The position numbers and the translations under genes are program-made. From assembly GCA_964489065.1 (NCBI GenBank), contig CAZAXH010000004.1, positions 150,304-214,303 of the forward strand: a stretch of DNA of 64,000 nucleotides. The letters are read 5' to 3'. Each line of letters begins with the position of its first letter. The first letter of the stretch is position 1. The DNA comes from an uncultured Planctomycetales bacterium (lineage in GTDB: Bacteria > Omnitrophota > Gorgyraeia > Zapsychrales > JANLHA01). Shown here piece by piece: positions 11,949 to 54,062 of this stretch. The notes beneath the pieces are model-generated. The model was not told where the DNA came from and did not search any database. It saw nothing but the letters and a program-made list of their open reading frames with translations.

Positions 11949-12082
11949 CCCCGCTCCTTTAAATGAGGTCCCAATAAAAATAATAAATCAAAGTGTATGA
12001 AGATCCTTTAGGCGTGAGATTTAAATCATTGGGACAAATAAATTAAACACAATATATCTGAAATAAAAACAGATGACGGCGT

Positions 12083-12111
12083 ATTCTATCATGCATGTTT
12101 TATTTTGTCAA
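12083..12111 (-). promoter_or_regulatory. sigma70-type promoter for the ABC transporter operon
   Basis: On the minus strand: TTGACA, 17 nt, TAGAAT, about 135 nt upstream of the SBP start. Confidence 0.55.
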
Positions 12112-12150
12112 AAAGCCTTCCTTCCTTATATAATCACAGGGCACTCTGTT

Positions 12151-12290
12151 CTCAATTAACCGCAGCAAGCTGCAGGGTATGAACCCAACATCCTTCGGCT
12201 CGTTCGCTTGGGCTCACTCGCTGAAGGATCAGTTCGCATTTTTAGTTTACACTCCCTTTGGTCGTGTAAACTAAATGCTCATTGAATAAA
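12151..12290. repeat. ~140 bp intergenic repeat element, copy 1, with conserved hairpin GTTTACAC-N11-GTGTAAAC at 12245-12271
   Basis: About 80% identical to 56662-56802. Lies between the GH94 stop and the ABC operon promoter. Confidence 0.7.
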
Positions 12291-12313
12291 AAAGGCGCAT
12301 GCCCGCCCCGCCG

Positions 12314-33398: not shown

Positions 33399-33474
<76 letters not shown>

Positions 33475-33494: not shown

Positions 33495-33890
33495 TTGAAA
33501 AGCTTTCGGGTTGTTTTATTTATCGGCATTATTGAAATTCTGATTGGCGGGGGGACACTCCTGGGAACGGTGTGGGCCGTGTTGCTGGGATCCAGCACCA
33601 AACCAAACAACGTTCTGTTCTTTGTTATTACGGCCGCTTTAACATCGTTTTCCATCGGCGTCGGCATTCTTCGGTTCAAAAAGCTGGCTTACCGGGCGTT
33701 GCTTTACTTCGCATCCGTGGTGCTCTTAAGCAAATTGCTGATTTTCTTGGGGATCATACATCTTAACGGCGCCCTGGAAACCGTGGTGCCGTCCCCGGTT
33801 AAAAACGGCATGTCCGTCTTCTATCACGGATTTGTCATTTATTCCCTGCTACAGAACGACATCAAAAAGATCTTTCACATTTGGCCGTAA
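33495..33890 (+). CDS. small membrane protein (131 aa, 4 TM) between two tRNA genes
   Basis: Clean ORF with hydrophobic helices. No family recognised. Confidence 0.5.
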   Translation: MKSFRVVLFIGIIEILIGGGTLLGTVWAVLLGSSTKPNNVLFFVITAALTSFSIGVGILRFKKLAYRALLYFASVVLLSKLLIFLGIIHLNGALETVVPSPVKNGMSVFYHGFVIYSLLQNDIKKIFHIWP

Positions 33891-33908: not shown

Positions 33909-33992
33909 GCTGGAGTGGCGGAATTGGCATACGCGCTGGTCTCAAAAACCAGTGAGGGCAACCTCATGAGGGTTCAACTCCCTCCTCCAGCA
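33909..33992 (+). tRNA. tRNA-Leu (anticodon CAA), type II with long variable arm, no encoded CCA
   Basis: Acceptor GCTGGAG/CTCCAGC, 3-bp D stem with 11-nt D loop, anticodon stem CTGGT/ACCAG with loop CT-CAA-AA, variable hairpin GTGAGG-gcaa-CCTCAT, T arm GAGGG-TTCAACT-CCCTC. Confidence 0.8.
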
Positions 33993-34073
33993 CTTAATTT
34001 TATATCCCCTCAACGACAATCTATTTCTTAATCTCCCCTACCGGGCCATTTTTGATTAAAACGGCCGCGCTTA

Positions 34074-34200: not shown

Positions 34201-37200
34201 ATGACTATCTTTCATAAAAACAGGCCATTAGTCCGCAGGTGTTTTACGCTCAATCTGGCGCTTATTTTTTTCCTGACATCCCTGGGGGGTGTTTGTCCGG
34301 TTTCTGCACAGGAACTGCTTAAGACCAGCGTCGCGTTGCCCTCCCCGGGCACGATGGTTCTTCCCACCTCAGAATACACCCCGATGACCATCAAAGGCAT
34401 CACGATCTATCCGGACGACCCTTTTAAATTTGATTTCATCATGAACACCGGGAATTCCGGGCTGGAGGGCGAAGCGTTCAAGACTGAATCACGGCTTTTA
34501 ATCTCGTATTTTCTGGCGTCTTTAACGACCCCGGAAGAGGACATGTGGGTCAATTTGTCTCCAGAGGAGAAAAACCGGGTCATCCCGGAAAATCTCGGCT
34601 CCACCGGGTTGGGAGTCGACATGCTGGCCCAGGATTACCTTTTAAAACAATTGACGGCGTCGATGATCTATCCTGAAAATGACCTGGGCCGGGATTTCTG
34701 GGCAAGGATTTATAAAAAAGTCTATGCCCTCTACGGGCACATAAACGTCCCGATTAACACCTTTAATAAGGTGTGGATACTCCCGGATCAGGCGGAAGTC
34801 TATGAAAAAGGTGAAAACGCGTTTATCGTCACGCAGCATCTGAAAGTATTACTGGAAGAGGACTATAAAGTCTTTAAAAGCCATCTTGAGAACAAACAGC
34901 TGGGCATGGAGAACATCCGGGAAGAAGACGCGGTGGTCCTGCAGGACACCACCTCCGATATTGTCCGGGAGGTGCTTATCCCTGAAATAGAAAAAGAAGT
35001 CAACCACGGGAAAAATTTCGCGAGACTCCGGCAAATTTTCAGCGCCATGATCCTGGCCACCTGGTATAAAAAAACCCTGAAAGATTCGCTTCTGGGGCAG
35101 GTCTATGTTGATCAGGCGAAAACAAAAGGCGTGGATGTCGAGGATAAAGAGCTTAAACAAAGAATCTATAATCAATATATTGAAGCGTTCAAAAAAGGCG
35201 TCTTCAATTATATTAAGGAAGATTACGATCAGGTCGAGCGCAAAAGCGTTCCCAGGAAATATTTCTCCGGCGGTATTGACGTGCGTTCCAGCGCCATCAC
35301 GGAGAAAAATTTATCTGTGTTGTCCGGGCCGATTCAACAGCAGCCCCCTCGTGTCCGAGAGGCCTTTACGTCGCCTTTGGGCGAAAATCAGAAAGTGGCT
35401 GTCGGCCTAGTCCTGGCCGGGGCTGACCAGGATTTGTTAAACGCCTGGTTAGCAGAAAACGCCTCGTCCCCTATTGTCGAAGCCGTGGACACGACCCCGC
35501 CGGCTGGCGGATATGTCACGGCCGATCTGAACGCGCCTTTAGAAGTGGACGTGCGCATTCGGATTCAAAAGACGCCCGTGCCGTTGGATATCAATAATTT
35601 GATTGTCACGCTTCATACCGAACTGTTTACCGAAAAGGAAAAAAATTTTATAAGGCCGAACGAAGGAACCATCCCCTGGCGGGACATCGTGGTGCCTCCC
35701 GAGAAAATTACCCCGGCGACAGACAGCGCTGGCCGGATTATTCCCAACGTTTTTAACGCCAAGGTGGACATTGTCCCCACCCGGACCGGAGCATACGCGT
35801 TTAAAGTCAATGCCCGGACACGTCAGCAGGATCAGCCTGTTTGGGTGCAGGGAGAAAACACAACCGTCCAGGTGGACCTTCTGCCCACATGGCTTGACAA
35901 GAATCAGACGCACCCGATGTACGTTTTCCAGGATGATGTAAAGCTGCGGAACTTTCCTGCGAATTGGACGGGGCTTAATGCTTACCTTAAGCAGACCGCC
36001 GAAGAGACCGGGAAAAATTTCTTTATGATCTCGCCGTTTTTCCCGACCCAGGCGGAGAGCCCGTTTGCCCCGGTATCGGTCTACGCGCTCTCTCCGCGTT
36101 TGATCGATTGGCAGGCGGTGGAAGACCGGGGCGAGCATCCTTTTGAAAAATTCCGCGATTTCCGACACAATGCCTCGCAAGCCCGCCGGGAAGCGTTCGA
36201 GCGGTTCCGGCGCGGCAATCTCCCGATTCAGCAATACGCTGATTTGCTCCGGGAAAGGATCCAAAACCGCCGGGATGTGACTGTCTACGGGGTGAATTAT
36301 TCAGATTTCGCGTATCTCAATTCAGAAGAAATTTCGGAATATTTAATTTATGAACAGTTTGTCAACCTGGAACAGCTCTACGCCCTTTTAAAATACCAGC
36401 GGGAACAGGGGAATCATGTGGTCGGGGACCTGCCCTTTTTCCGATCTATCGTGGGAGTCGAAACCCGGTATGAACCGAATAATTTCGCCCATGACGGAGA
36501 CAACATAGATAACCCGGGTTTTATGGGGAATAAAAAGGTGCATGACCTGGCGGCCTGGGATGAAGTGGCGATCGACCAGCGCGTGCAGAACGGCGAGAAA
36601 GACCCGCGGATTCTCCCGTTCGAATATTGGAATAATCTTTTCCATAAGGTGTTCCTGGACCGCCGCACCCGGATTCACGGCTGGAGGATTGACGCTTTTC
36701 ATATGTACGGCCGGGGGTCATCCAAAGACAATGCCGCCAGGCTGATTTGGGGCACCTCCCTGTGGGAGGAATTCGCCCGTTATTTTCAAGCCCATGATTT
36801 GTTCCTCATGGCCGAACAGCTCGGCGGGGACGCCCATGCGTATTATCATTTTCAACGGCTGGGTCTCTTACAGAACGCCTTTATCCTGGACCTGAAGGCG
36901 AAAAAGCTGGACGCGTTTCTGTCCGACCTCGCCTGGATTTCCAGAGGACTGGCGGTCACCGTTGCCGACACGCATGACAGCGCCCGCTGGGCGGAAGAAT
37001 ATTTCCGTATGTTTGAAGAAGTCACGGGGCTCGCGATGACGAGGCCGGATGACCGGGCCGTCCAGGAAAAAATATTGAACTTGGCTGGGCCAATTTTCCT
37101 GGGACTTTTAATGCTCGGCCCCAAGTTGGAAACCGCCCTGCTCAGCCTTGGGGAACACGCGACCCAGGCTCCCATCAAAAGGGAGTTCCGGGATGAGAAG

Positions 37201-40200
37201 GGTGAATCGGTCATTGGGTCGGCCTGGGGCACTGCGGCGATGGGGCGGGTCGATTTGTCGGCCTGGGTCAAACGGTTCACCCGGATCAGGGAGGAAAATC
37301 CGGCAGTGAGCCGTTCGGAAATGGTGGTGCTTTCTAACAACAGCCCTCAAAACATGGTATCGGTAGCCAAAGTGTTTCAGGATAACAAATTATTATTCAT
37401 CGGCAATTTTTATAAAGAGGCCAAAACCATGGAATTGCCTGTTTTTCAATTTCCGGGATTCGGGATCGCCGCAGAGGATATAGCGGTGTTCCGCAACGCC
37501 CTTGCCCCCGAGGAGGAAATCCGGGTGGAACAAGGGAAGCTGACCTATCCCCTCGCTCCCGGGCAGGTGGCCGTGCTGAAACTGGAATCTGTGCGGAAAC
37601 CGGGGCCCACGTCCTCCCCCGTGACGCAAAGATGGAACTGGGCGGAGAATAAGAATAAAGCTGTGATGCTGTTGCCGGGTGAAACGTTGTTGATTGAGAA
37701 TGAGGAGTTTTTTGAACTGATTATTACAGAACATAATTTTGGGGGGACACAGACACTTTTTTGTGAAGCGGACCATAAATACATCGGCGATAAGTCGCAT
37801 CTTTATTATAAGCTTGAATTGACGGACTTAGACCCTGGAGATTATTCCATAATGTTTCGTTGGCCCGGGAAGCAGACCAACGGCGGCTGGGAAGGAGAGT
37901 CGGGGGGACCCCGGTCTTATCATTTTAAGGTTTTACCTGACATAACCCGTTTGAAATCTCCATATGAAAAATTGTCCATCCGAGTAACGTCCGGAGATCT
38001 AGGCCTCTCACCTGTATGGAACCCATTTCTAAAGTATCCGCATTATACAGTTACTTTATCCAACGGGATAGGAACGATTTTTAGAATACCGATCCGACCT
38101 CTCGTCCGGGAACAAAAAGACGGCGCTATCCGGGTGGGGGGCTATGTGAGCAAATATGACGGGTTCCTGGTCAACCTCAAGACAAGAGGCACTCCAGATG
38201 AAAATAAGCGGGCCATCTACCGGGGTGCAGTTGAGGATGTAAATGTAAAATTTCGTGATGGGAGTGAGCAGTTGTATTCCCTGGATATAAGAAGCTTTGA
38301 CCATTTTGAACGTTATCCGTCTCCGACCTGGACTTATGTTTTGAAAAAAGATTATTCCGGAATTGTGGTCATAGAAAAAACCGCGGTTGTCAAACAGGGA
38401 GAGAACACATTTGCCTTTCAGTACCGCGTTGTTTCAGCGACACCGGAAGTTGATGCCGTGGAGTTGTTCGTGCGGCCGGATATGGACCAGCGATCCCACC
38501 ATGAAACTACGACAATTACGCCAGAAGGCCTAGGCTGGTGGCAGGGAAAACAGCGGGTTGTATCCGACCAGAATGGAAACTCTATCGGGTTTGAATTGGG
38601 CGTCATTAATGAGGCTTGGAAACAGTGGTATCCGGGTTTTGAGGGGGTTCGGATGACAATCACAAAGGGCCGTTATCAAGAGTCCCCTGAGCGCCATTAT
38701 AGCGACAATCCGCTGGAAGAGGAGCGAGGACAACATAATTACAGCGACAGTTACAGCCCAGGATTCTTTTCCGCCATATTAAAAGCCGGGGAAACCACCA
38801 GCCTGGTTTTATCCAGCCGCGATATTAACACTCCCGACCATGTTTATGGGGAACAGGATGTTACGACTTTGATTCAAGAGAATACAACTCTTCTGCAAGA
38901 CCGTTTGGCTTTGATTAAGAATAAAGCGACAAGAGATGATGTCTTTGTGCAAAAACTGGTCCTGGCCCTCTGGGAGTTTATTGTTCAAAGGGACGAGTTT
39001 TATACTGTTATTGCCGGTCACCCCTGGTTTTCTGATTGGGGCCGGGACACCTTCATTGCTTTTGACGGAGTTTTGGCTGCAGGCATGTATGATGTGGCCC
39101 GGGGGTTGATTCTGGCTTTCGGGAGGTTTGAAGGTAAAGACGGAAACAAGGGGATGTTGCCCAATATTATCACAGGCGAGGAAGCAGGGAATTGGGATAC
39201 GGTGGATGCGCCGTTATTGTATGTGCTGGCTGTCCGGAATTATATTCAAAGCACGGGGGATGCCGGCATTTTGGAAACAAAAACCGGGGGCCGGACTGTG
39301 AGGGCGATTATTGAGTCCATCACGGAAGGGTATCAGCAGGGCACAAAAAACGGGATTCGCATGGACGCTGAGTCGGGGTTGATTTATTCCCCTGCCCATT
39401 ATACCTGGATGGATACGAATTATCCCGCGGCCACACCCCGGGAAGGCTACACGGTTGAGAACAACGCCCGATGGTTTGATGTTTTAAGTTGGCTTGCCGA
39501 GCTCGCCAGAAGGGACAATGATTTACCCAAGGCCGAGACTTATGCCCGGTTGGCGGCACGGGTCAAAGAAAGTTTTAATACGTATTTTTGGAATGAAAAC
39601 AGCGGCTATCTGGCGGATACAGTTTTCGCCGGCCAAGGGGTCAGCGCGAAAGACGGACGACCGGATCTTTCAATCCGGCCTAATCAGTTGATTGCGGTGC
39701 TTTCTGTCTATGGACTCTTATCTTCGGAACGCCAGCGAAAGATCGTTGAACTCGTTGAGAAAAAACTTCTGGTCCCAACGGGATTACGCACGCTGTCGGA
39801 AGACACCCAGTCCAGCGCGGAATTTCCTTATCGCGGCACGTATGAAGGCAGTGACGATTATGGCCGAAAACAAGCGTATCATAACGGCACGGTATGGCCG
39901 CACCTTTTCGGAGATTGGGCGCTGGCGTATGTTATGGCGAATAATTTTTCACAGCAAAGCAAAGAACATGTTTTACCGTATTTCACCACTCTGGATGAAC
40001 ATCTCAAGCAAGCCGGGGTAGGGAGTGTTTCGGAAGTGCGTGACGGGAATTATCCCCATCGGCCGAGAGGCACGGATGCCCAGGCCTGGAGTGTCGCGCT
40101 GCCCTTGGCCGCCTATACGAAAATACAGTATGGCGAACAAGACGACCAGGCTTCCTCTCCGATAGGAGTCTCGGGGCCAGGCGTCGCAGAATCGATAGTC

Positions 40201-40422
40201 CCGCAAGCCTCCCTTCAGACTTCTTCCGACCTTTCGCAGGATCTGGGGGGCATTAATCTTAACGCGGACCTGATGAACCTTAAAATCCAGCGTGACGAAC
40301 ACGGCCTCCCTCTCCCCCTGCCGCAACAACCTTTAATGGATATACAGGTGGAAGGCTTTTCCCCTGTCATCTTTTACGTCGTCCCCGTAGATATCCTGCT
40401 TTTGACCGGCCTGAAATCTTAA
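34201..40422 (+). CDS. 2073-aa secreted multidomain alpha-glucan-active enzyme: signal peptide, ~550-aa unknown N-domain, GH77 4-alpha-glucanotransferase domain, beta-rich middle region, archaeal-type glycogen-debranching (GDE_N/GDE_C, amylo-alpha-1,6-glucosidase) module, then a Pro-rich linker and hydrophobic C-terminal tail
   Basis: GH77 motifs: FFMISPFFPTQAESPFAPVSVYALSPRLID (compare LPLGPTGYGDSPYQSFSAFAGNPYLID), VVGDLPFF, WRIDAFHMYGRG (compare RIDHFRGF), TVADTHDS. GDE_C motifs: AGHPWFSDWGRDTFIAFDG, NGTVWPHLFGDWA. N-terminal signal MTIFHKNRPLVRRCFTLNLALIFFLTSLGGVCPVSA. C-terminus ...PLPLPQQPLMDIQVEGFSPVIFYVVPVDILLLTGLKS. Confidence 0.8.
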   Translation: MTIFHKNRPLVRRCFTLNLALIFFLTSLGGVCPVSAQELLKTSVALPSPGTMVLPTSEYTPMTIKGITIYPDDPFKFDFIMNTGNSGLEGEAFKTESRLLISYFLASLTTPEEDMWVNLSPEEKNRVIPENLGSTGLGVDMLAQDYLLKQLTASMIYPENDLGRDFWARIYKKVYALYGHINVPINTFNKVWILPDQAEVYEKGENAFIVTQHLKVLLEEDYKVFKSHLENKQLGMENIREEDAVVLQDTTSDIVREVLIPEIEKEVNHGKNFARLRQIFSAMILATWYKKTLKDSLLGQVYVDQAKTKGVDVEDKELKQRIYNQYIEAFKKGVFNYIKEDYDQVERKSVPRKYFSGGIDVRSSAITEKNLSVLSGPIQQQPPRVREAFTSPLGENQKVAVGLVLAGADQDLLNAWLAENASSPIVEAVDTTPPAGGYVTADLNAPLEVDVRIRIQKTPVPLDINNLIVTLHTELFTEKEKNFIRPNEGTIPWRDIVVPPEKITPATDSAGRIIPNVFNAKVDIVPTRTGAYAFKVNARTRQQDQPVWVQGENTTVQVDLLPTWLDKNQTHPMYVFQDDVKLRNFPANWTGLNAYLKQTAEETGKNFFMISPFFPTQAESPFAPVSVYALSPRLIDWQAVEDRGEHPFEKFRDFRHNASQARREAFERFRRGNLPIQQYADLLRERIQNRRDVTVYGVNYSDFAYLNSEEISEYLIYEQFVNLEQLYALLKYQREQGNHVVGDLPFFRSIVGVETRYEPNNFAHDGDNIDNPGFMGNKKVHDLAAWDEVAIDQRVQNGEKDPRILPFEYWNNLFHKVFLDRRTRIHGWRIDAFHMYGRGSSKDNAARLIWGTSLWEEFARYFQAHDLFLMAEQLGGDAHAYYHFQRLGLLQNAFILDLKAKKLDAFLSDLAWISRGLAVTVADTHDSARWAEEYFRMFEEVTGLAMTRPDDRAVQEKILNLAGPIFLGLLMLGPKLETALLSLGEHATQAPIKREFRDEKGESVIGSAWGTAAMGRVDLSAWVKRFTRIREENPAVSRSEMVVLSNNSPQNMVSVAKVFQDNKLLFIGNFYKEAKTMELPVFQFPGFGIAAEDIAVFRNALAPEEEIRVEQGKLTYPLAPGQVAVLKLESVRKPGPTSSPVTQRWNWAENKNKAVMLLPGETLLIENEEFFELIITEHNFGGTQTLFCEADHKYIGDKSHLYYKLELTDLDPGDYSIMFRWPGKQTNGGWEGESGGPRSYHFKVLPDITRLKSPYEKLSIRVTSGDLGLSPVWNPFLKYPHYTVTLSNGIGTIFRIPIRPLVREQKDGAIRVGGYVSKYDGFLVNLKTRGTPDENKRAIYRGAVEDVNVKFRDGSEQLYSLDIRSFDHFERYPSPTWTYVLKKDYSGIVVIEKTAVVKQGENTFAFQYRVVSATPEVDAVELFVRPDMDQRSHHETTTITPEGLGWWQGKQRVVSDQNGNSIGFELGVINEAWKQWYPGFEGVRMTITKGRYQESPERHYSDNPLEEERGQHNYSDSYSPGFFSAILKAGETTSLVLSSRDINTPDHVYGEQDVTTLIQENTTLLQDRLALIKNKATRDDVFVQKLVLALWEFIVQRDEFYTVIAGHPWFSDWGRDTFIAFDGVLAAGMYDVARGLILAFGRFEGKDGNKGMLPNIITGEEAGNWDTVDAPLLYVLAVRNYIQSTGDAGILETKTGGRTVRAIIESITEGYQQGTKNGIRMDAESGLIYSPAHYTWMDTNYPAATPREGYTVENNARWFDVLSWLAELARRDNDLPKAETYARLAARVKESFNTYFWNENSGYLADTVFAGQGVSAKDGRPDLSIRPNQLIAVLSVYGLLSSERQRKIVELVEKKLLVPTGLRTLSEDTQSSAEFPYRGTYEGSDDYGRKQAYHNGTVWPHLFGDWALAYVMANNFSQQSKEHVLPYFTTLDEHLKQAGVGSVSEVRDGNYPHRPRGTDAQAWSVALPLAAYTKIQYGEQDDQASSPIGVSGPGVAESIVPQASLQTSSDLSQDLGGINLNADLMNLKIQRDEHGLPLPLPQQPLMDIQVEGFSPVIFYVVPVDILLLTGLKS

Positions 40423-40629: not shown

Positions 40630-42198
40630 ATGTCCAACGATCCCTTAAGCCGCGCCGATGAAAATAACCGGGCCACGCGCCCTTTAAACCTATCCGCGAT
40701 GCGATTCCTTAAAGCAGCCCTGATCCCAGCGCTTCTTTTCATCATCAATTTTCTGCTGCGCCTCTCTTTAATTAGCAAAGGCCCCTATCATCTGGACTGT
40801 GTCACCATGGCCTACCAGGCCGGGCTCACGGTCAAGACCGGCACGCTCCATTACCTCCACAGCCACGGGTTCCCCTTGAGCGCCATACTCGCCGCCTTCA
40901 GCGCCTGGCTGGCGCAGGCCTTCGGTGCCGACGCCGTGGCCGCGGTGAACGGAATGAGCGTGTTCGTCAGCGCGCTTTCTGTCCCGCTTTTCTTTATCGT
41001 CACCCAGAAACTTTCCAGGAAAACCACGGCGGTCATAAGCAGCCTCTTGTTTTCGGTCAGCCCAATTTTCTTAAGCCTGTCGGTGTTCGGCAACACGCAC
41101 GTCTTAAGCCTGTTCCTCTGCTTGATGAGCGTATTCTTTATCCTTAAACTCAAAGCGCGTCCCTGTTCCAGCACCCTGCTGACGGCAGGGATTACGCTGG
41201 GATTATGGGGCGCGGCCCGCGTGCAGGACTTTCTCACCCTAGTGCCCGCGGTTCTGCTCCTCTTAAGGTTTCCCGTTATCCCCTCCGACGCCCCAAGGGG
41301 AAAACCGCTGACCACGCGGGCCCAAACGGCCGTGACAGCCTTGGCCATTGCGTTCATCATCACCGGATTATTCTACCTCCCGCTGGTCATGGCGACTCCG
41401 GGAAAAAGCCTGCGCCCGTTCTGGGATTTTGAAATCGCCAGCCGACTGAACATCCTGTCCCTCCGCTATCTTCTCCTCTCCCTGATTTATGGAGCCGATA
41501 ATTTTTTGCCGCTGGGCCTCGTGCTTATTGCCCTGGGCCATGTTATTATATATAGAATCAATAAATCTTTAGGCACGTTTTTAACGGCCTGGTACGCAGT
41601 TCCGCTTGTGGTGTTCAGCCGCCTGGATATTGTTATGCCCCGGTTTTTCCTGTGCGCCCTGCCGGCGCTCTACATCCTGGCGGGAACGGTGCTGGCCGCG
41701 CTATACCGACAGCGCAAAGTCTATTTTAAAACGATGACTCTCCTGATTATCCTTCTATGGGGCTGGCTGTGTTTTTACCGGATTTATCCCGTCCTTGACT
41801 TCCGGCACCGGCACGCGCTGTTGCCCGATTATATCCGCTGGATCAAGGACCAGGCCGGGCCGGGCGCCCTGATGATTCCCGGAGACGAAGGTGATTTTCT
41901 GCGATATTATAACGGGCCCGGCCTCCTGCGCCTCCCGCTCAAAATTCGGACCTCGTATTCCGAGGCGGAGCTTAATTCTTTCAAACAAAAAATCGACCGG
42001 GCGCTCGCCGGCGGCCGGGACGTCTATATCAATTACATCACCATGTCCGCCCACAACCCGCGGCGCCAGTTCACGGATTTTCTCCAAAAAAACTACTCGC
42101 TGATCTGCCTCGGAGAAAAACTTTATGAAGACTGGCACCGAGGTGCGATGTACCAGTTCATTTACCCGGTGGCTGTTTACAGGATCGTCAACGAATGA
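40630..42198 (+). CDS. polytopic membrane glycosyltransferase, GT-C fold (ArnT/PMT/DUF2723-like), paralog 1
   Basis: AAGGAG SD. About 11 TM helices followed by a ~120-aa C-terminal soluble domain. Conserved blocks shared with the downstream paralog: RLSLISKGPYHLDC, RHRHALLP, EDWHRG. Confidence 0.6.
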   Translation: MSNDPLSRADENNRATRPLNLSAMRFLKAALIPALLFIINFLLRLSLISKGPYHLDCVTMAYQAGLTVKTGTLHYLHSHGFPLSAILAAFSAWLAQAFGADAVAAVNGMSVFVSALSVPLFFIVTQKLSRKTTAVISSLLFSVSPIFLSLSVFGNTHVLSLFLCLMSVFFILKLKARPCSSTLLTAGITLGLWGAARVQDFLTLVPAVLLLLRFPVIPSDAPRGKPLTTRAQTAVTALAIAFIITGLFYLPLVMATPGKSLRPFWDFEIASRLNILSLRYLLLSLIYGADNFLPLGLVLIALGHVIIYRINKSLGTFLTAWYAVPLVVFSRLDIVMPRFFLCALPALYILAGTVLAALYRQRKVYFKTMTLLIILLWGWLCFYRIYPVLDFRHRHALLPDYIRWIKDQAGPGALMIPGDEGDFLRYYNGPGLLRLPLKIRTSYSEAELNSFKQKIDRALAGGRDVYINYITMSAHNPRRQFTDFLQKNYSLICLGEKLYEDWHRGAMYQFIYPVAVYRIVNE

Positions 42199-43739
42199 AA
42201 AACCGCCTTCCCTTTCATCCCGCTCTGATCCCTCTTTTATTCGGAGGGCTAAACCTGCTGTTACGGCTATCGGTAATCAGCCGGGGGCCATTTAACGGCG
42301 ACTGCCTCTCCCTGGCGATCCAGGCCGAGAAAACCCTGCAATTATTGCAACCCCAATACGTTTTCGGCACAGGCTATCCCCTGACGGTTCTCTTGGGTGC
42401 CTTGTTTTTCAGGCTGACACGGCTTTACGGCAACACCGATCCTGTCCTGGCCGTTAACCTTATGAGTGTGGTCTTAAGTTCGCTAACGGTGGCCATCCAT
42501 TACCTCGTCGTGCAAAAACTCCTGGACCGAACCGCGGCGATAGCCAGTGCGCTCTTATTGTCCGTGTTCCCCATATTTTTAGGGATATCCACCTACGGCA
42601 TGAGCCACGTCCCCAGCCTGTTGTTCCTGCATCTGGGCCTTTTATCGCTCCTGCAATTTAAGGAAACCCGCTCCGCCGCGAACTTCGCCTTAAGCGCCTT
42701 CTGGCTGGGATGCATGGGCGCCTCCCGTATTCAGGAATTCGCCCTCATGACCGTGCCCGTTTCGATCCTGCTGGGAACGCTTGTGTCCGGCGGAGGCGGC
42801 CCGCGGCCGGGCGCCAGAACAGCCTACCGCCGGTTCCTAAACAAATTCTTTTTCCTTTGGCTCGGCGCTGGTGCGACCGCGCTCCTTTTTCATCTTCCGC
42901 TTTTTCTTTTGTCCGCGCAAAACGGGTATTTCGTCCAGTTGAAACGGTACTGGGCCGCCAGCACGGCGCCGAACTTCTTAGGGTTCCTGTCGCCGGCTTT
43001 AGGCGACAGTTTTCAGGTCACATTCTTCAGCCTGACCCCCTTCGGCGCCATAGCCGCCGCGCTGGGGCTCCTCCTGCTCTTAAAAAACAAACGGTTCACA
43101 GCCCTGTTCCTGGCCGCGTGGTTCCTCTGGCCGCTCCTGTTCCTCGGCAACCTCGCCATGACAACACCGCGGTTCATCCTTATCGCGCTGATCCCGCTCT
43201 TGATTTTTTCCGGCGCGTTCTTTTCTCATCTTAAAAATTTCCCCAACACCCGTTTCCGCCTGCTCGCCAGCTTCGCTTTCGGCCTTATTTTTGTCACCAT
43301 GTTCGTCAACATCCACCCGATCCTGCGGTTCCGCCACCGGCATGAATTGCTGCCGGGTTTCGCCCGTTTCGTCCAGAAAAGCACCGAGCCCGGCGCGAAA
43401 ATCATCTGCGGGGACGAATTCCCGTTCATCATTTATTACGGCCGCCGGGACATGCTCCGCCGGCCTAACGACCCTTTCCGCATCACACCCACGGACATGG
43501 AAGTGTTCCGGGCCCGGCTGGACGAACTGCTTGCCGACGGGGTGCCTGTTTATATTACCTCCTCGGGCCTGTTCAGCTACGACCCGGGCAAACGCTTTTC
43601 CGGATTCATCCAATCTCATTACCGGCTGGAATACCAGGGCGAAACCCTTTCGGAAGACTGGCACCAGGGCGTCACCCGGCTGCGCGTCGGCGTGGAAAAA
43701 CTCTACCGGATCCAAAAGCTCCCGCGCGCGGAGCCCTAA
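42195..43739 (+). CDS. polytopic membrane glycosyltransferase, GT-C fold, paralog 2 (tandem duplicate)
   Basis: Start overlaps the upstream stop as ATGA. Same architecture and motifs: RLSVISRGPFNGDC, RFRHRHELLP, EDWHQG. Confidence 0.6.
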   Translation: MKNRLPFHPALIPLLFGGLNLLLRLSVISRGPFNGDCLSLAIQAEKTLQLLQPQYVFGTGYPLTVLLGALFFRLTRLYGNTDPVLAVNLMSVVLSSLTVAIHYLVVQKLLDRTAAIASALLLSVFPIFLGISTYGMSHVPSLLFLHLGLLSLLQFKETRSAANFALSAFWLGCMGASRIQEFALMTVPVSILLGTLVSGGGGPRPGARTAYRRFLNKFFFLWLGAGATALLFHLPLFLLSAQNGYFVQLKRYWAASTAPNFLGFLSPALGDSFQVTFFSLTPFGAIAAALGLLLLLKNKRFTALFLAAWFLWPLLFLGNLAMTTPRFILIALIPLLIFSGAFFSHLKNFPNTRFRLLASFAFGLIFVTMFVNIHPILRFRHRHELLPGFARFVQKSTEPGAKIICGDEFPFIIYYGRRDMLRRPNDPFRITPTDMEVFRARLDELLADGVPVYITSSGLFSYDPGKRFSGFIQSHYRLEYQGETLSEDWHQGVTRLRVGVEKLYRIQKLPRAEP

Positions 43740-43793
43740 GCCCCGCGGGGCCGAATCTGTTGCCCGTTTTCTGATTCAATGCTACACTTATAC

Positions 43794-44384
43794 ATGATGA
43801 AAAAACCCCTGTTAATCATAACACTCCTGTTTCTCCTGCCCGCAACCTTTCTCCTTATTCCCTCATCGGCCGCGGCGGGAGAGAACACCGCATCCGTGCC
43901 CCTACAGTTTATCTCTCTGAATGACGGCACGCTGATCCGGGGACGGCTGACTTCCGTCGAGAATGGCGTTTATATCATTCAAACCGAGCACTTGGGCGAA
44001 ATCCGGGTGAACCCGGAGGATATTCAAAGCATCTCTTCCGGAAATTTCCAGCGCAAGGAAAAGGACGACACTGCCGGCTCCCGGCAGAACGCGGCCAGGA
44101 CCGTTCCCCTTTCCCCGGGGACGCAGGTCCTGAATTCCCCGGACGCACTGCAAACGGTCCAGCAGGCCCTGATGAGCGATCCGCAAATCCTATCCCTTAT
44201 CCAGGACCTCATGCAGGACCCGGAGGTGGTGAAAATCATCGAGGACAGCAACCTCATGAACGACCTCTCGACACTGGACCCGGCCACCATACAGAAAAAC
44301 CAGGACTTCCAGCGCCTGCTCCAGCATCCGAAAATCCAACAGATCATCAAAACCTTCACCCAAAAAAATATCCAACTGCCTTAA
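43794..44384 (+). CDS. secreted protein with N-terminal beta region and C-terminal helical DP/Q-rich repeats
   Basis: Signal peptide MMKKPLLIITLLFLLPATFLLIPSSAAA. Repeats SDPQILSLIQDLMQDPEVVKIIED and DPATIQKNQDFQRLLQHPKIQQIIKTF. Confidence 0.55.
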   Translation: MMKKPLLIITLLFLLPATFLLIPSSAAAGENTASVPLQFISLNDGTLIRGRLTSVENGVYIIQTEHLGEIRVNPEDIQSISSGNFQRKEKDDTAGSRQNAARTVPLSPGTQVLNSPDALQTVQQALMSDPQILSLIQDLMQDPEVVKIIEDSNLMNDLSTLDPATIQKNQDFQRLLQHPKIQQIIKTFTQKNIQLP

Positions 44385-44454: not shown

Positions 44455-45159
44455 TTAATGGATGTTGGAGTGGCGGTTATACCGCAGGCGTATTGTATCG
44501 ACGACAACCCGGGGACCGTGCCGCAGGATGGAAAAGGTTCCCGGCCCTTTGTCGCAATAAGAACCCGGGATCTCCAGGATGGAACAGCGGCGGGCAGAGA
44601 AAGCGTTGATGATTTCCATGTGAATATCAAAGCCGTCCGCACGAAGGGGAACCCGCGTTAAAACCTCGCGGGACATGGCGACGGTCCCGGATCCGATGTC
44701 AAAAACCGGGACATGAAAAAGTATCCGGCAAAGCCAGAAATACATCCGGCTGACCGTCCTGCGCAGAAACGGGACGCGGCCCTGCCCCGCGGCAAGATAG
44801 CGGGACACGACAACCATCTCGTATTTTTTGCTTAGCGCGACCAGATCTTTCAAAACAGCGGTGCCAAAAGGGAGATCGACGTCGCAATACACCACGGTCT
44901 GGCCCTGCGCCTCTTCGAACAGCCGCCTTAACGTAAACCCCAGGCCGCGGTTTTTTTCATTGAACGCACAGCGCACGCCGGAACGCTGATCCGCAAGACG
45001 GCGCAGGACATCGGCACTGCCGTCAGAGCTCCCATCGTCCCGAAGTAAAATTTCATATTCCAAACCCTGTCCGTCGCAAAAGACGGCAAGCTCTTCCACC
45101 GCAGGGATGATAAGATCCCTGGAATTATAAACAGGGATAACGACAGACAACTCGGGCAT
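44455..45159 (-). CDS. GT2-family polyprenyl-phosphate glycosyltransferase (Dpm1/GtrB/ArnC-like)
   Basis: LSVVIPVYNSRD...DDGSSDGS...VVYCDVDLPF GT-A motifs. 234 aa with no C-terminal TM pair. Confidence 0.7.
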   Translation of the reverse strand: MPELSVVIPVYNSRDLIIPAVEELAVFCDGQGLEYEILLRDDGSSDGSADVLRRLADQRSGVRCAFNEKNRGLGFTLRRLFEEAQGQTVVYCDVDLPFGTAVLKDLVALSKKYEMVVVSRYLAAGQGRVPFLRRTVSRMYFWLCRILFHVPVFDIGSGTVAMSREVLTRVPLRADGFDIHMEIINAFSARRCSILEIPGSYCDKGPGTFSILRHGPRVVVDTIRLRYNRHSNIH

Positions 45160-46985
45160 TAAAAAACCCTCGGGGTTAACGCGTCCCGGTCCGAATCAGG
45201 CGGAGACTGCAAAACGGATTCGACCTGCTGAAGCAGCATGCCCGCCTCCAGCACGCGGCCCTGCTGTTGAAAAAACCAAATAGATTGATTAAGATGGCTG
45301 CGGACCTCGTCTTCTTTCCCGAACTGGGCGTACACGCCCGCTAGGTTAAAATACGCTTCCGCGAAAGCGGGATTCAAAGCGATGGCTCTCCGGTAAGCGG
45401 CGATCGCCTGCTCCGGAAGCCCTTTTGCCAGATACACCGGAGCCACGGCGAAATAAAAATGCGCGTCGTCCGGCTTCAAAGCGATCGCGGCTTGAAACGC
45501 GTTCAGCGCGAGGTCCCATTCCCCTTCCTGGGCGTACACGATCCCGAGATTGCTCTGCATCACGGCGCTCTCGGGGTTCATCTGGACCGTTCCTTCATAC
45601 AGCCGCCGGTTGTCTTTCCAGTCCGTATTCCGCAACCAGGTCCGTCCTCCGTAAAACACAACGATCAGGGCGGCGCACGCCGTGACCGCGCGTTTCATCC
45701 ATGTCCGGTCGACGGAGGAACCCGCCTCCAGCCAGGAGACAATCCCCGTCGCTAATAAAAAGCAAAAACCCAGGGAGCCGGGATACAAATACCGCTCCGC
45801 GAAATAAACAGAGCTGGGCACGATATTAGCCCCCGGCAACAAGGAAATGAAGAGCCAGCCGGCACAAAATCCAATGAGAGGCCGGCGTCTTCTGGAGACA
45901 AACACCCAGAAAGCCAGCAAACCCAACACGGCCAGGGCCTTCAGCGTGTACCCATCGGTCCAGGACTGCGCCAGGACAGCGGCCCGGTTAAAATCGCTCG
46001 GGTCAAACGCGAAAATACCGGGCGCGATCACGGGATTGTGGGACAATTGAAAAGGAAACACAAGCACCGCCAGGTATTGCGCCCAGGCCTTGACAATGAC
46101 CGCCATGGTCAGGCCGAAACTCCCGGCGACATAACCGCCGCGGTTGATCATGCCCAGCACGCCCCACTTGCATAAAATATAAACCGCGACAATGACAAAA
46201 AAAGGCCAGGAGAGCGGCACAACCTCCCGCCATGTCCGGCGGGGCCGCGTAAAAAACTTATCGTAAAACACAATCAATAACGGCATTGAAATCGCCAGCT
46301 CATGGGTAAACACCGCCAGAACCGCGAAAAAAACCGCCCAGCCCCGGGCCCGCGCCTCTGAGTCCGCAGGGGGTTGCTCTCGGCCCGCCGGACTTATATC
46401 CTCATCCGCGGCTCCCTCTTCCCAGAAAATCGGAACCTGGCCTTCCCTCCGATCAGCCCGCAGATGAAAATAAAAACCCGCGAACAAAAACACGATCCCG
46501 AGCGTGTCTACGCTGGCCGTCATAAACGTGATGGCTTCGACATGAACCGGGTGCAATGCGAACAAAAGCGCCGTCCAAAAAGAAACATCGCTGCGCCGCG
46601 ACAATTCATAAACGATTTGATACACGAGCCAGATCCCGGCGGCGTGAATAAGGAGCGAAACAAGGTGATAACCGAAAACCGCCTCTCCCCACAATTGATA
46701 ATTGACCGCGTGCCAAAAGGTTTTAAGCGGGGAATAGACTCCGGGCTGTCCGTCCGGCGGGATATATCCCACGAAAAACCGGGGGACATTGCGCAGGTCA
46801 CGGATCAGCGGCCAATTGGTGATAAAATCGAAATCGTCCAGGACAAACTGATTGCCAAAAATATTGCTGAAGGCCAAAAACGTTAAGACAAAAACAAAAC
46901 CCAAACGCGCCGCCTTTTGCTGAAACAGCTGGCTCCACCCCCGCGCGGGAGCGGTTTCTTTGTTTTTACCCCTGGCCTTTCTCAT
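45159..46985 (-). CDS. GT-C membrane glycosyltransferase with C-terminal TPR repeats (TMTC/PMT_2/DUF1736-like protein O-mannosyltransferase family)
   Basis: N-terminal FVLDDFDFITNWPLIRD motif, multiple TM helices, and at least 4 C-terminal TPR units. ATG at 46985 overlaps the rlmN stop (ATGA) and has a GGAGGGAGG SD. Its stop overlaps the GT2 start as TAATG. Confidence 0.7.
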   Translation of the reverse strand: MRKARGKNKETAPARGWSQLFQQKAARLGFVFVLTFLAFSNIFGNQFVLDDFDFITNWPLIRDLRNVPRFFVGYIPPDGQPGVYSPLKTFWHAVNYQLWGEAVFGYHLVSLLIHAAGIWLVYQIVYELSRRSDVSFWTALLFALHPVHVEAITFMTASVDTLGIVFLFAGFYFHLRADRREGQVPIFWEEGAADEDISPAGREQPPADSEARARGWAVFFAVLAVFTHELAISMPLLIVFYDKFFTRPRRTWREVVPLSWPFFVIVAVYILCKWGVLGMINRGGYVAGSFGLTMAVIVKAWAQYLAVLVFPFQLSHNPVIAPGIFAFDPSDFNRAAVLAQSWTDGYTLKALAVLGLLAFWVFVSRRRRPLIGFCAGWLFISLLPGANIVPSSVYFAERYLYPGSLGFCFLLATGIVSWLEAGSSVDRTWMKRAVTACAALIVVFYGGRTWLRNTDWKDNRRLYEGTVQMNPESAVMQSNLGIVYAQEGEWDLALNAFQAAIALKPDDAHFYFAVAPVYLAKGLPEQAIAAYRRAIALNPAFAEAYFNLAGVYAQFGKEDEVRSHLNQSIWFFQQQGRVLEAGMLLQQVESVLQSPPDSDRDALTPRVF

Positions 46986-48127
46986 GTCCGCCTCCCTCCG
47001 GAGCCGCGCCACCCCCGGGGTTCGTAACGCCGTGCCGACGCCGGACGTGTCCGGCCGGTCCCGCGGCCACGTCCGGATGAAGACCCTTTCCGTAGCTGCC
47101 CACAGGCGGCCTGGACATCCCGCCCCCGGGGCATCCGGACCGTGGCGTGAATCCCCTGTCGCAAAAGGAGCGTCATAAAAGAAAGCATTTCCAACTTGTT
47201 CGGCGGCTCATAATCAAACTCCGGAACGGGATTATACGGGATCAGGTTCATCTTGCAGAGCATCCCCCTTAACAAGCCCCCCAAAGCCCGGGCGGCTTTT
47301 TCCGTGCAGGTCAAATTTCTGATTAAAATATATTCAAACGTGATCTGGCGGTTGGTTTCCCGGATGTATTCCCGGCAAGCGGCCATGAGTTCCCGAATAG
47401 AATATTTTCTATTAACCGGCATAAGAAAGCTCCGGGTTTCGTCATCATATCCGTGCAGCGAAACCGCCAATTCGATCTGCAGCCCCGCCTTGGCCAGCTC
47501 TTTCATCCCGGGAATCAGGCCCGCGGTGGAAACCGTCAGGTGGCGGGCGCCGATATTCAAACCCTGACCGGAATTAATGATCCGGATAGCGGCCATAAGA
47601 TTCTGAAAATTATCTAGCGGCTCGCCGGTGCCCATAAAAACGATATGAGACAGCGGTTGGCTGTGTTGGAGCGATTCCTCCTTCAGGTGCAAGGCCTGGG
47701 TCACGATCTCGGCGCACGTCAGATCCCGGCTCCAACCGCAGACGCCGCTGGCGCAGAACTTGCAGCCGAACCGGCAGCCCGCCTGGGTGGAAACGCAGGC
47801 CGTGGCCCGGCCACGGGCTGGGATCAGAACGCTTTCAATTTTTTCATGGTCGTCAAGCTCAAAGAGAAACTTAATGGTGCCTTCAGCGGAAACCTTCTTC
47901 TGCAGCACAACAAAAGGACGGCAGTGGAAATCCCGCGCCAGCCTCTCCCGGAGCGGCTTGGGCAGATTGCTCATCTCATCAAAAGACCACGCGTTCTTTT
48001 GATAAAGCCATTCAAAAACCTGGACCGCGCGGAAACTTTTTTCCCCAGCGACTTCCAAATACTTTTTCAGGTCATCGCAGGATAAATTCCTGATATCCTC
48101 TTTATGAGACAATTCCCCTTGATTCAT
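46982..48127 (-). CDS. rlmN: 23S rRNA m2A2503 / tRNA m2A37 methyltransferase RlmN (radical SAM), with Arg/Gly-rich C-terminal tail
   Basis: CVSTQAGCRFGCKFCASG radical-SAM motif and RlmN-family fold. Tail GSSSGRGRGTGRTRPASARRYEPRGWRGSGGRRT. Confidence 0.85.
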   Translation of the reverse strand: MNQGELSHKEDIRNLSCDDLKKYLEVAGEKSFRAVQVFEWLYQKNAWSFDEMSNLPKPLRERLARDFHCRPFVVLQKKVSAEGTIKFLFELDDHEKIESVLIPARGRATACVSTQAGCRFGCKFCASGVCGWSRDLTCAEIVTQALHLKEESLQHSQPLSHIVFMGTGEPLDNFQNLMAAIRIINSGQGLNIGARHLTVSTAGLIPGMKELAKAGLQIELAVSLHGYDDETRSFLMPVNRKYSIRELMAACREYIRETNRQITFEYILIRNLTCTEKAARALGGLLRGMLCKMNLIPYNPVPEFDYEPPNKLEMLSFMTLLLRQGIHATVRMPRGRDVQAACGQLRKGSSSGRGRGTGRTRPASARRYEPRGWRGSGGRRT

Positions 48128-52248: not shown

Positions 52249-52532
52249 TTTTATAACAACACCCCCACAAGAAAGACGTATATTTTACGATATCCCACGT
52301 TTTCGGGTCGGCCAGCATCAGGCAAACAACCATTCGCCGCTATAAAGGGACGCTTTTCCCGCCAGCAGCCAAAATTACTGGACCCGCCTGAAAAACCGGG
52401 GGACCGGACAGGATTTCATCCCCACAATTAAACCCAAAAAAGGCCGCCCGGCTGTTTTCTTGTGAAAACACGGCGCAGGACGAGCCTCGTCATTTCCTTA
52501 ATTGAAATGACAAAAAGATGACGGGAAATACC

Positions 52533-54062
52533 ATGTTATCAAAAACCTACAGTTACGCCTTAAGCGGCATTGATTCCTATTTAGTCACGATTGAAGTTGA
52601 TTGTTCGCGCGGCCTGCCGGCAACGATTATTGTCGGGCTTCCCGACAACGCGCTCAAGGAAAGCAAAGAACGGGTCCGCGCGGCCATTAAAAACAGCGGA
52701 CACAAATTCCCCTCTTCCAGAAGCACCGTCAACCTTTCTCCAGCAGACACAAAAAAGGAAGGCCCGGCCTTTGATTTGCCGATCGCCTTAGGGGTATTGG
52801 CGGCCTCCGAACAGATTTCCCCGCAACGCTTGAATGAATACGCCCTTTTGGGAGAGCTCTCTCTGGACGGGAAGGTCAAGCCTGTCAAGGGCGCGCTGTC
52901 CATCGCGCTGTCTATGGATAAAAACCGTTTTAAAGGACTTGTCCTGCCGGCGGCTAACGCTCCGGAAGCGGCCATTGCCGATGTCATCGACGTTTATCCG
53001 GCGGATTCCCTCAACCAGGTGCTCCATTTTCTCTCTGTGCCGGAAAGCATCCGCCCCTTTAAAACCGATCCCTCCCTGCTCACAGATCAACCCGATGACG
53101 GGGGGCTGGATTTTGCCGATATCAAGGGCCAATACCAAGTCAAGCGCGGCCTCGAGATATGCGCCGCGGGGGCGCACAATTGTCTGCTGATAGGCAGCCC
53201 CGGCACAGGAAAATCGCTCGCCCTGCGCCGGTTAAACAGCATTATCCCTGAAATGAGCCGGGAAGAAATCCTGGAAACCACCCGGATTTATTCCGCCATG
53301 GGCCTGGTGAAATCAAAAACGGGAATGGTGACGCAACGCCCCTTCCGCTCTCCCCACCCTACGACCTCGGACGTGGCCCTGGTCGGAGGCGGATCAACCC
53401 CCCGTCCGGGGGAGGTGACCCTGGCCCACAACGGCATCCTTTTCCTGGACGAACTTCCCGAATTCAGCCGTAACGCGCTTGAAGCGCTGCGTCAGCCCCT
53501 GGAAGAAAAAATCGTCACCATCTCCCGCGCGTCTAAAACCATGCAGTTTCCCGCCAACTTTATGTTCGTCGCCGCCATGAACCCCTGTCCGTGCGGATTT
53601 TTCACCGACCCGAAAAAGGAATGCCGGTGTTCCTCCTGGCAGATCCAGAGGTATATTTCCAAAGTGTCCGGCCCGCTGCTGGACCGCATCGACCTTCATC
53701 TGGACGTGCCGTCCCTCCCGCCGGAGGAACTCCTGTCCGACACAAAAGGAGAACCGTCGGCGCAAATCAAAGAAAGAACCGTCAAGGCCAGGGAAATTCA
53801 AAAAAAGCGGTTTGCCGGCACCGGCATCGCCGTCAACGCGCAACTCAATCACCGCCAGCTCAAAGAATACTGCCCCCTGTCCCCAAAATGCCGCACCCTG
53901 CTCAAACAAGCCATTGAAGAGCTCAATTTCTCCGCCCGGGCCCACGATAAAATCATCAAGGTGGCTCGAACTGTAAGTGACTTGGCTGGCTCCCCCGACA
54001 TTTTGCCCGAGCATATTGCCGAGGCGATTCAATATCGGAGTCTGGACAGGGGCTTTTGTTAA
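52533..54062 (+). CDS. comM: Mg-chelatase-like AAA+ ATPase YifB/ComM
   Basis: N-terminal Lon-protease-like domain, Walker A GSPGTGKS, Walker B ILFLDELPEF, C-terminal ComM domain. ATG at 52533. Confidence 0.85.
   Translation: MLSKTYSYALSGIDSYLVTIEVDCSRGLPATIIVGLPDNALKESKERVRAAIKNSGHKFPSSRSTVNLSPADTKKEGPAFDLPIALGVLAASEQISPQRLNEYALLGELSLDGKVKPVKGALSIALSMDKNRFKGLVLPAANAPEAAIADVIDVYPADSLNQVLHFLSVPESIRPFKTDPSLLTDQPDDGGLDFADIKGQYQVKRGLEICAAGAHNCLLIGSPGTGKSLALRRLNSIIPEMSREEILETTRIYSAMGLVKSKTGMVTQRPFRSPHPTTSDVALVGGGSTPRPGEVTLAHNGILFLDELPEFSRNALEALRQPLEEKIVTISRASKTMQFPANFMFVAAMNPCPCGFFTDPKKECRCSSWQIQRYISKVSGPLLDRIDLHLDVPSLPPEELLSDTKGEPSAQIKERTVKAREIQKKRFAGTGIAVNAQLNHRQLKEYCPLSPKCRTLLKQAIEELNFSARAHDKIIKVARTVSDLAGSPDILPEHIAEAIQYRSLDRGFC

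Follow-up and report, generated by a model that had tools for sequence, protein, structure and literature searches.

Why does a bacterium of the Omnitrophota carry two overlapping genes for similar membrane proteins, and what do the two proteins do? The question is raised by a 64,000-nucleotide stretch of DNA from an uncultured Planctomycetales bacterium that GTDB places in the Omnitrophota (assembly GCA_964489065.1, contig CAZAXH010000004.1, positions 150,304 to 214,303 of the forward strand). This whole stretch is called the window, and positions are counted from its first letter. Members of the Omnitrophota have not been cultured; they are often very small and may be associated with hosts. 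To our knowledge, their envelope chemistry is essentially unknown. A first-pass annotation, made from the letters of the window alone, had proposed tandem, translationally coupled paralogs of GT-C type. Two open reading frames (ORFs) of the proposed lengths are present, and the start of the second lies on the stop of the first:

40630..42198, forward strand: gene A, ORF of 522 amino acids (aa), putative membrane glycosyltransferase with a GT-C fold, paralog of B
42195..43739, forward strand: gene B, ORF of 514 aa, putative glycosyltransferase with a GT-C fold, paralog of A with the same architecture
42195..42198, forward strand: ATGA stop/start overlap of A and B, a candidate termination-reinitiation coupling site, with a weak AGGA 10 nt upstream of the B ATG

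The B ATG occupies positions 42195-42197 and the A TGA positions 42196-42198, which together read ATGA. The pair comes from an old tandem duplication within one lineage. Its enzyme class, the GT-Cs, is well known, but its own branch is uncharacterised. Our preferred reading, which we hold at a probability of roughly 60%, is that A and B are catalytically competent, diverged paralogs that perform two non-redundant transfers of sugar from polyprenyl phosphate to an acceptor in the envelope.

Two full-length paralogs with a GT-C fold

Three sequence blocks had been described as common to the two proteins, and all three are present in both: RLSLISKGP in A and RLSVISRGP in B, FRHRHALLP and FRHRHELLP, and EDWHRG and EDWHQG. 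The C-terminal domain had been said to end with the last of these blocks. The motif is there, but 17-24 residues still follow EDWH. In the BLASTP comparison, A and B align with E=1e-31 and 35% identity over A317-519 and B305-506, which is only the C-terminal 40%. The N-terminal membrane halves have a Smith-Waterman score of 336, compared to 43.6 +/- 6.7 in 300 shuffles (z=44). The middle segment (A220-316 and B200-304) has no detectable similarity when it is compared alone. In a 33-sequence family alignment, the full-length identity of A and B is 32%. The pairwise similarity is far above chance, and this confirms that A and B are full-length paralogs.

In more distant orthologs, the protein begins near M24 of A. 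The 23 residues before this point lack conservation there, and their predicted local distance difference test score (pLDDT) is only 53-58. For these reasons, A may start at M24 (position 40699) and have a length of 499 aa. ORFs that overlap A and B in other frames (for example, 43080..43715 on the reverse strand and 42710..43234 on the forward strand) are treated as by-products of GC-rich coding sequence.

The AlphaFold2 models of A and B, built on the family alignment, have pLDDT values of 90.0 and 92.8 and predicted TM-scores (pTM) of 0.89 and 0.92, respectively. The order of helices and strands is identical in the two models. In each, 11 helices are modelled as transmembrane (TM) and are followed by a C-terminal alpha/beta domain of ~130 aa, and no loop is longer than ~35 aa. 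In Foldseek searches of the PDB, each model has 31 matches at E<=1e-3, and all of these are GT-Cs or the GT-C-like PIGU. The top match is PglB for A (3rce, E=5e-9) and STT3 for B (6s7t, E=1e-8). The best size-matched fold is ArnT, with TM-scores, in both normalisations, of 0.62/0.60 for A (5f15) and 0.63/0.61 for B (5ezm). The other matches include AglB, ALG9/ALG12, DPY19, Pmt4 and AftA/AftB/AftD, as well as weak matches to Pmt1/Pmt2 and the Emb proteins. The first-pass description of the pair as GT-C-like membrane proteins is borne out both by this superposition on solved GT-C enzymes and by PMT_2 matches in the family.

In the Pfam searches, B matches PMT_2 (38.2 bits, cutoff 26.1) and TMEM260-like (27.8 bits, cutoff 24.2), and A scores just under both cutoffs. 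The PMT_2 match spans TM2 to TM6 and is found in all 33 aligned family members; a match to this domain is common to many GT-C families. The STT3 Pfam entry is weakly matched by 8 of the 33 members and by neither A nor B. In NCBIfam, A has no match and B has only an 18-bit match to archaeal STT3. Neither A nor B matches the PMT N-terminal domain (PF02366) at E<=1, although 4 of the 33 family members do. By Pfam, A and B also have no MIR domain and no PMT_4TMC domain, and loop 1 contains xDC instead of the DE motif of PMTs. The closest homologs carry the public NCBI label 'glycosyltransferase family 39 protein'. This label is not backed by the defining PMT features and is a transfer at the level of the domain, not a demonstrated membership.

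The likeness to ArnT is not detected at the level of sequence. The family profile aligns with 5ezm at a non-significant E=5.6, and neither A nor B has an NCBIfam ArnT match. Searches of the solved structures by phmmer return nothing for A or B, and the family profile returns only this ArnT alignment. A mapping of catalytic residues by sequence onto a solved GT-C was therefore dropped, and the alignment is used only as a hint, in which the PRF motif falls near the LPGY segment of ArnT. The C-terminal domain of ~130 aa has no sequence match in Pfam or the PDB. A and B are not true members of PMT/GT39 or of ArnT. They belong to a previously uncharacterised GT-C(A) family that has its own C-terminal domain and is seen here only in Omnitrophota.

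ArnT (GT83; undecaprenyl-phosphate-L-Ara4N:lipid A transferase) is similar to A and B in size (~520-540 aa) and in layout, with a GT-C(A) multi-helix module that is followed by a small C-terminal periplasmic alpha/beta domain (best mutual TM-scores 0.60-0.63). In A and B, however, the C-terminal domain has motifs of its own (FRHxH, GDE and EDWH). In the GT66 proteins STT3, PglB and AglB, as in A and B, extracytoplasmic loop 1 (EL1) has an early Asp and a late periplasmic loop has a conserved Arg. The GT66 proteins also share with A and B a C-terminal domain outside the cytoplasm, which in GT66 contacts the acceptor (PMC6801728). Unlike A and B, they are 650-870 aa long and have a much larger C-terminal domain with WWDYG and related motifs. 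Their donors are pyrophosphate-linked oligosaccharides. The PMT/POMT proteins (GT39) belong to the same GT-C clan, but the structural match of A and B to Pmt1/Pmt2 covers only ~260-300 columns, with TM-scores of 0.34-0.37.

A topology model that we built from the AlphaFold2 helices suggests 11 TM helices with the N-terminus inside and the C-terminus outside. The C-terminal domain would then be periplasmic. This model obeys the positive-inside rule, with a K+R density in B of 0.23 in the cytoplasmic loops and 0.07 in the periplasmic loops. It places all invariant polar residues on the periplasmic side, D82 excepted. A and B retain all 18 invariant columns of the family alignment as well as the near-invariant ones. 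The retained residues include (B/A where paired) D36/D56, R178/R197, R326/R338, R380-H381, D407 and E487-x-W489. The near-invariant Asp (B D36, A D56; at least 90% conserved) is found 9-10 residues after TM1 in the motif GP(Y/F)HxDC. In EL3, there is a second invariant Arg (R178 in B, R197 in A) together with Q180. TM10 begins at the invariant Arg of the PRF motif (R326 in B, R338 in A), which the model puts on the periplasmic side. Further invariant segments on this side are SxYGxSH and the three motifs of the C-terminal domain. In B numbering, S132, H138, Y415, Y453 and H490 are invariant as well.

GT-Cs in general have an acidic motif in EL1 after TM1. EL3 and the last loop each contain a basic residue, of which the one in the last loop is the proposed ligand of the donor phosphate (PMC6801728). 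Judged by its conserved residues, the A/B family appears to be congruent with this general pattern, save for the single Asp in EL1. By analogy with ArnT, PglB and the PMTs, the sugar would come from a donor linked to polyprenyl phosphate, and A and B would each transfer it at the periplasmic face to an envelope acceptor. The near-invariant Asp of the first periplasmic loop would be the general base, and the Arg of the PRF motif would hold the donor phosphate. The family-specific C-terminal domain may help to bind the acceptor.

Duplication and divergence of the pair

B has 47 relatives in word-based homolog searches, and A has 14. When 1.84 billion representatives are searched exhaustively with a profile, 392 clusters (50% identity) are found at E<=1e-30. 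The same search returns 13,662 clusters at E<=1e-3, and the family grades into the general PMT_2 superfamily. Most of the distant family clusters have no taxon label, and the sole label found is Omnitrophota. In a scan with one genome per species, there are 28 family loci, all of which are in Omnitrophota metagenome-assembled genomes (MAGs) or in MAGs auto-labelled 'uncultured Planctomycetales'. One locus with the latter label (L007) has the same synteny as the loci in Omnitrophota genomes.

The A+B pair is present at the syntenic locus in the window and in four other genomes (L001, which is the same record as L006, and L003, L004 and L005). A single copy is present at this locus in L002, L007, L009, L014, L019, L028 and L029. 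The count of copies in relatives, a check that the first-pass annotation had proposed, thus gives a single copy at the locus in most relatives and a pair in five genomes.

In the bootstrapped neighbour-joining tree, the A orthologs form one clade (100%) and the B orthologs form another (97%). Because the two clades are separately supported, the duplication of A and B is read from the tree as one old event within one Omnitrophota lineage. The pair is retained down to 43-48% ortholog identity, where synonymous sites are saturated. A third clade, clade C (L011, L015, L026 and P0032; 100% bootstrap), contains a third paralog at a different locus of the same genomes; its loci L011, L015 and L026 belong to the genomes of L004, L005 and L001. 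Clade C is found in each genome that has A and/or B, and its members have no adjacent small secreted protein. The genome of the window probably has a clade C copy outside the window.

One genome, L002, contains an A-type copy only, plus a clade C copy elsewhere on the same 3.35-Mb contig. No B-type ortholog from this contig is found among the word-search homologs of B, in which orthologs with 57% identity from other genomes did appear. Since A and clade C copies are present and B is not, B appears to have been lost from L002. The other tandem pairs, in L027 (sister copies, 81% support), L022 (57%) and L018 (one copy frameshifted), look like independent duplications. In L018 (8082-9911), the upstream copy of the pair is split into two ORFs (133 and 428 aa) and is either a frameshifted pseudogene or an assembly error.

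Both A and B are under purifying selection. Calculated with the L004 and L005 orthologs, A has ratios of nonsynonymous to synonymous substitution (dN/dS, Nei-Gojobori) of 0.25 and 0.27, and the corresponding ratios of B are 0.14 and 0.17. If one copy were a redundant or decaying duplicate with no distinct role, A would be the more relaxed of the two by these values, though only slightly; A is also under the Pfam thresholds, a copy is frameshifted in another lineage (L018) and B is gone from the L002 locus. Such decay is nevertheless highly improbable. Both ORFs are intact, keep all invariant residues and are confidently folded by AlphaFold2. The separate ortholog clades persist past synonymous saturation, and A has clade-specific residues of its own that are strictly conserved (8 of 8 sequences).

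At 11 positions, 7-8 of the 8 A-clade sequences have a fixed residue that differs from the one conserved in the rest of the family. All 11 are in the modelled periplasmic half. Six of them change the motif at the EL1/TM2 boundary, near the presumed catalytic Asp, from FGxGYPLTV to HSHGFPLSA. A further one lies just before the PRF Arg, where YGNL becomes FSRLD. Placed on the model, the substitutions in A have the pattern expected of a specificity change, not of decay or simple redundancy. By their sequences, both copies look functional, and it is plausible that they have diverged in substrate or step. The tandem duplication is ordinary in itself. Its value is as a natural pair for specificity determinants, with the EL1/TM2 motif of B set against that of A.

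L004, L005 and the distant L001 all have the same ATGA overlap of A and B. The overlap is 26-32 nt long in L003 and 14 nt long in the pair of L022, which was duplicated independently. The overlap and the weak AGGA would fit termination-reinitiation coupling. The conserved overlap is thus consistent with the translational coupling that was first proposed, but it is not proof of coupling. Around the pair, promoter and terminator signals occur in numbers at the level of shuffled sequence. The window contains no Rfam family other than two tRNAs. A single transcript with the stop/start overlap would express both A and B, and it is reasonable to describe them as duplicated, functionally diverged and probably co-translated GT-C enzymes.

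An overlap of this kind could ensure matched subunits if A and B formed an obligate heterodimer, as Pmt1-Pmt2 and EmbA-EmbB do, with clade C homodimeric like EmbC. The stop/start overlap is kept across distant orthologs, and A and B are retained together, with overlapping genes, in five genomes. The fold matches include solved heterodimers (6p25, Pmt1-Pmt2; 7bvf, EmbA-EmbB) and homodimers (7bve, EmbC2; 9i5k, Pmt4). The mycobacterial EmbC/EmbA/EmbB proteins (GT53) are themselves tandem paralogous GT-Cs. EmbA-EmbB form a heterodimer (7bvf) and EmbC forms a homodimer (7bve), and the third paralog elsewhere in the same genomes gives A, B and clade C a similar three-paralog pattern. Unlike A and B, the Emb proteins are ~1050-1100 aa long and have large carbohydrate-binding periplasmic domains, and their fold matches have E=0.02-0.2. 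Their donor is decaprenyl-phosphate arabinose and their product is arabinan.

The idea of a paralogous partner was taken from the PMTs, and the PMT1/PMT2 analogy of the first-pass annotation is not supported. The defining PMT/GT39 features are absent, and L002 has A alone. At its locus, L002 has A, the secreted-partner gene, the GT2 gene and the TPR gene, yet it has no B. This, together with the single copy at the syntenic locus in most relatives, argues against an obligate A-B pair. Since no presumed catalytic residue is missing from either copy, neither A nor B has the look of a subunit with a structural role only. ArnT and PglB, which among the structural matches of similar size are the closest, are generally regarded as monomers. 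We consider an obligate heterodimer unlikely. Two non-redundant transfers, which would differ in site, linkage or step, are the most likely division of labour between A and B.

The conserved neighbourhood and the proposed acceptor

The genes that accompany A and B bear on the donor and the acceptor. In the conserved locus, the upstream side consists of biotin genes and a small membrane protein, which are followed by the GT-C gene or genes and a small secreted protein. The genes for a GT2, a membrane protein with TPRs, RlmN, AccA and a LysM-YkuD protein are convergent to these. In the window, the members of the locus nearest to the question are the following:

43779..44384, forward strand: small secreted protein, 201 aa (196 aa in another annotation), candidate acceptor or accessory partner
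44455..45159, reverse strand: GT2 (GT-A fold), soluble catalytic domain, 234 aa, Pfam Glycos_transf_2 E=2.5e-21
45159..47012, reverse strand: membrane protein with C-terminal TPRs, 617 aa, TPR Pfam matches, TMTC-like candidate third GT-C
33495..33890, forward strand: four-helix membrane protein, 131 aa, no significant Pfam family

The closest solved relatives of the GT2 are Pyrococcus DPMS (5mlz, 7e-17), ArnC (9hwj, 5e-12) and GtrB (5ekp, 1e-5), all of which are polyprenyl-phosphate glycosyltransferases. In NCBIfam, it has sub-threshold matches to ArnC, AglJ, PgfS (2.2e-10) and PpgS. Synteny of the GT2 with family GT-Cs extends to at least 10 loci (L001, L002, L003, L004, L005, L007, L009, L014, L019 and L028). 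The GT2 is a candidate polyprenyl-phosphate sugar synthase, and as the convergently encoded DPMS/ArnC-like enzyme it would be the most likely source of the lipid-linked donor.

The gene for the 617-aa protein shares 1 nt with the GT2 gene and 31 nt with that of RlmN. The membrane part of this protein has no Pfam match. After TM1, it has an invariant FVLDDFDFI motif in which D59 and D60 are invariant. Its tie to the GT-Cs is a single hhalign profile match to the A/B family (probability 64%, E=6.7e-5, 327 columns), in which the DD falls over the family Asp. A DD motif after TM1 in the membrane domain and C-terminal TPRs are the layout of TMTCs (PMC7801869), and the 617-aa protein looks like a bacterial TMTC-type GT-C. 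A and B are themselves linked to the TMTC/TMEM260-type O-mannosyltransferases by the TMEM260-like score of B, which is over the threshold. They differ from TMTCs in that they have no TPR domain and a lone Asp, not DD.

The 201-aa secreted protein has no annotation in any source looked at, and its score for Pfam STI1-HOP_DP is under the cutoff (21.3 bits, cutoff 29.1). Its word-based search gave only close relatives, and the distant homologs were found by a hidden Markov model on the fetched loci. In the alignment of 18 homologs, the protein has a cleavable signal peptide, a small beta domain, a variable linker rich in Ser/Thr/Pro/Gln and helical DPx-hydrophobic repeats. The S+T+P fraction is 0.34 in the linker and 0.18 in the folded parts (p=2e-4). 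On the same strand, a homolog directly follows a family GT-C at 15 of 27 untruncated loci; at two others, it is within 10 kb. The acceptor would most likely be a periplasmic or envelope protein, and this small secreted protein is the leading candidate for substrate or partner.

The 131-aa four-helix protein is directly upstream of the GT-C gene or genes in L001 and L002. In the window, a gene for a 2073-aa protein intervenes before A. The four-helix protein was considered as a GtrA-like flippase and has no significant family match. It is the only candidate flippase and a possible one.

Three-component periplasmic glycosylation systems, made up of a polyprenyl-phosphate sugar synthase, a flippase and a GT-C, are well described (PMC11127046). 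At this locus, a GT2 synthase and GT-Cs are encoded together, as is the case in such systems. Judged by its gene neighbourhood, the conserved locus resembles a three-component system (PMC11127046, PMC8035078) and would glycosylate in the periplasm from a lipid-linked sugar. Its nearest functional precedent is the Pgf cluster of streptococci, which serves protein O-glycosylation. This cluster encodes a GT-A polyprenyl-phosphate sugar synthase (PgfS), two non-redundant paralogous GT-Cs (PgfM1 and PgfM2) and secreted substrates with Ser/Thr-rich disordered regions (PMC12041528). In the Pgf and GtrB/PgtC2 systems, however, PgfM1, PgfM2 and PgtC2 are Gram-positive YfhO-family GT-Cs with no sequence relation to A and B.

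The same evidence can be read with a different acceptor. The pair could modify an outer-membrane or cell-wall lipid or glycan (lipid A, lipopolysaccharide (LPS) core or peptidoglycan) in the manner of ArnT or Gtr, and the small downstream protein would then be a periplasmic factor with no relation to the pair. ArnT is the best size-matched structure, and its likeness extends to context, as an ArnC-like GT2 that also resembles GtrB is encoded near A and B. Three-component systems usually decorate glycans (PMC11127046, PMC8035078), and the conserved neighbourhood includes an L,D-transpeptidase gene (LysM-YkuD). Against this, the sequence similarity to ArnT is non-significant, and in the fold search the scores of oligosaccharyltransferases equal or exceed those of ArnT. 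The window has no LPS genes, and arnA, arnB, arnD, arnE and arnF are not among its large ORFs. The same-strand link to the secreted protein and the TMTC-like TPR protein favour protein substrates. A lipid or glycan acceptor is doubtful on this balance.

Several points weigh against two sugar transfers to an envelope acceptor, and against a protein acceptor in particular. The acidic motif in EL1 is a lone Asp (HxDC or NGDC) and not the usual DxD, DE or DD. The topology model tentatively counts the hydrophobic segment 110-137 of B as a periplasmic loop. The catalytic activity of A and B is a proposal drawn from conserved residues and models. ArnT, which is closest in structure among enzymes of similar size, has lipid A and not protein as its acceptor. 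Many family members have no adjacent GT2, and no GtrA, SMR or MATE flippase gene is found near the pair. The synteny of the GT2 and TPR genes might reflect housekeeping gene order, with RlmN, AccA and the biotin genes as flanks, instead of shared function. The S/T/P enrichment of the linker is generic for disordered linkers, and in some homologs S+T is only 0.06-0.09.

The favoured reading of two non-redundant transfers leaves room for a bolder version, which we regard as speculative and improbable in its full form. In this version, A and B, the STI1-DP-like secreted protein, the DPMS-like GT2 and the TMTC-like TPR protein would be a new, Omnitrophota-wide system of periplasmic protein O-glycosylation. 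A new GT-C family with an acceptor-binding C-terminal domain would glycosylate the disordered linker of a partner or chaperone that is periplasmic and dedicated to the system, and A and B would act successively or at specific sites. The conserved module, and above all its dedicated secreted partner, is a more interesting lead than the duplication, and it could define a protein glycosylation system in an uncultured phylum. The GT-C family and its module, in which a lipid-sugar synthase and a dedicated secreted protein accompany up to three enzymes of GT-C type, are a testable entry to Omnitrophota surface glycosylation.

Other genes of the window

The remaining features of the upstream side are the tRNA genes that flank the gene for the 131-aa protein and the large ORF that precedes A:

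33399..33474, forward strand: tRNA-Ala(GGC), flanks the gene for the 131-aa protein
33909..33993, forward strand: tRNA-Leu(CAA), flanks the gene for the 131-aa protein
34201..40422, forward strand: 2073-aa ORF with a signal-peptide-like N-terminus, a weak GH77 (4-alpha-glucanotransferase) match and clear GDE_N/GDE_C amylo-1,6-glucosidase domains

In the 2073-aa ORF, ~1300 N-terminal residues have no domain assignment. The gene is absent from the same position in L001, L002 and L003, and for this reason it looks like a lineage-specific insertion just after tRNA-Leu.

No third member of the A/B family is found in the window; the other 514-aa ORF (52518..54062) encodes an Mg-chelatase/ComM-like ATPase and not a GT-C. 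A protein of another GT-C-type family, with a YfhO domain (E=1e-14), is encoded at 18303..20690 on the forward strand (795 aa). The YfhO family includes the streptococcal protein glycosyltransferases PgfM1 and PgtC2 (PMC12041528). With this gene in addition, there are up to four GT-C-type genes within the 64-kb window.

A sugar-utilisation cluster is found at 1655..14731 on the reverse strand. It encodes a GH94 phosphorylase and a GH2-like protein that has TPR repeats. A regulator of LacI type and the parts of an ABC sugar transporter, namely one solute-binding protein and two permeases, are encoded there as well. This cluster, the giant GDE protein and a phosphoglucose isomerase suggest a glycan-centred lifestyle.

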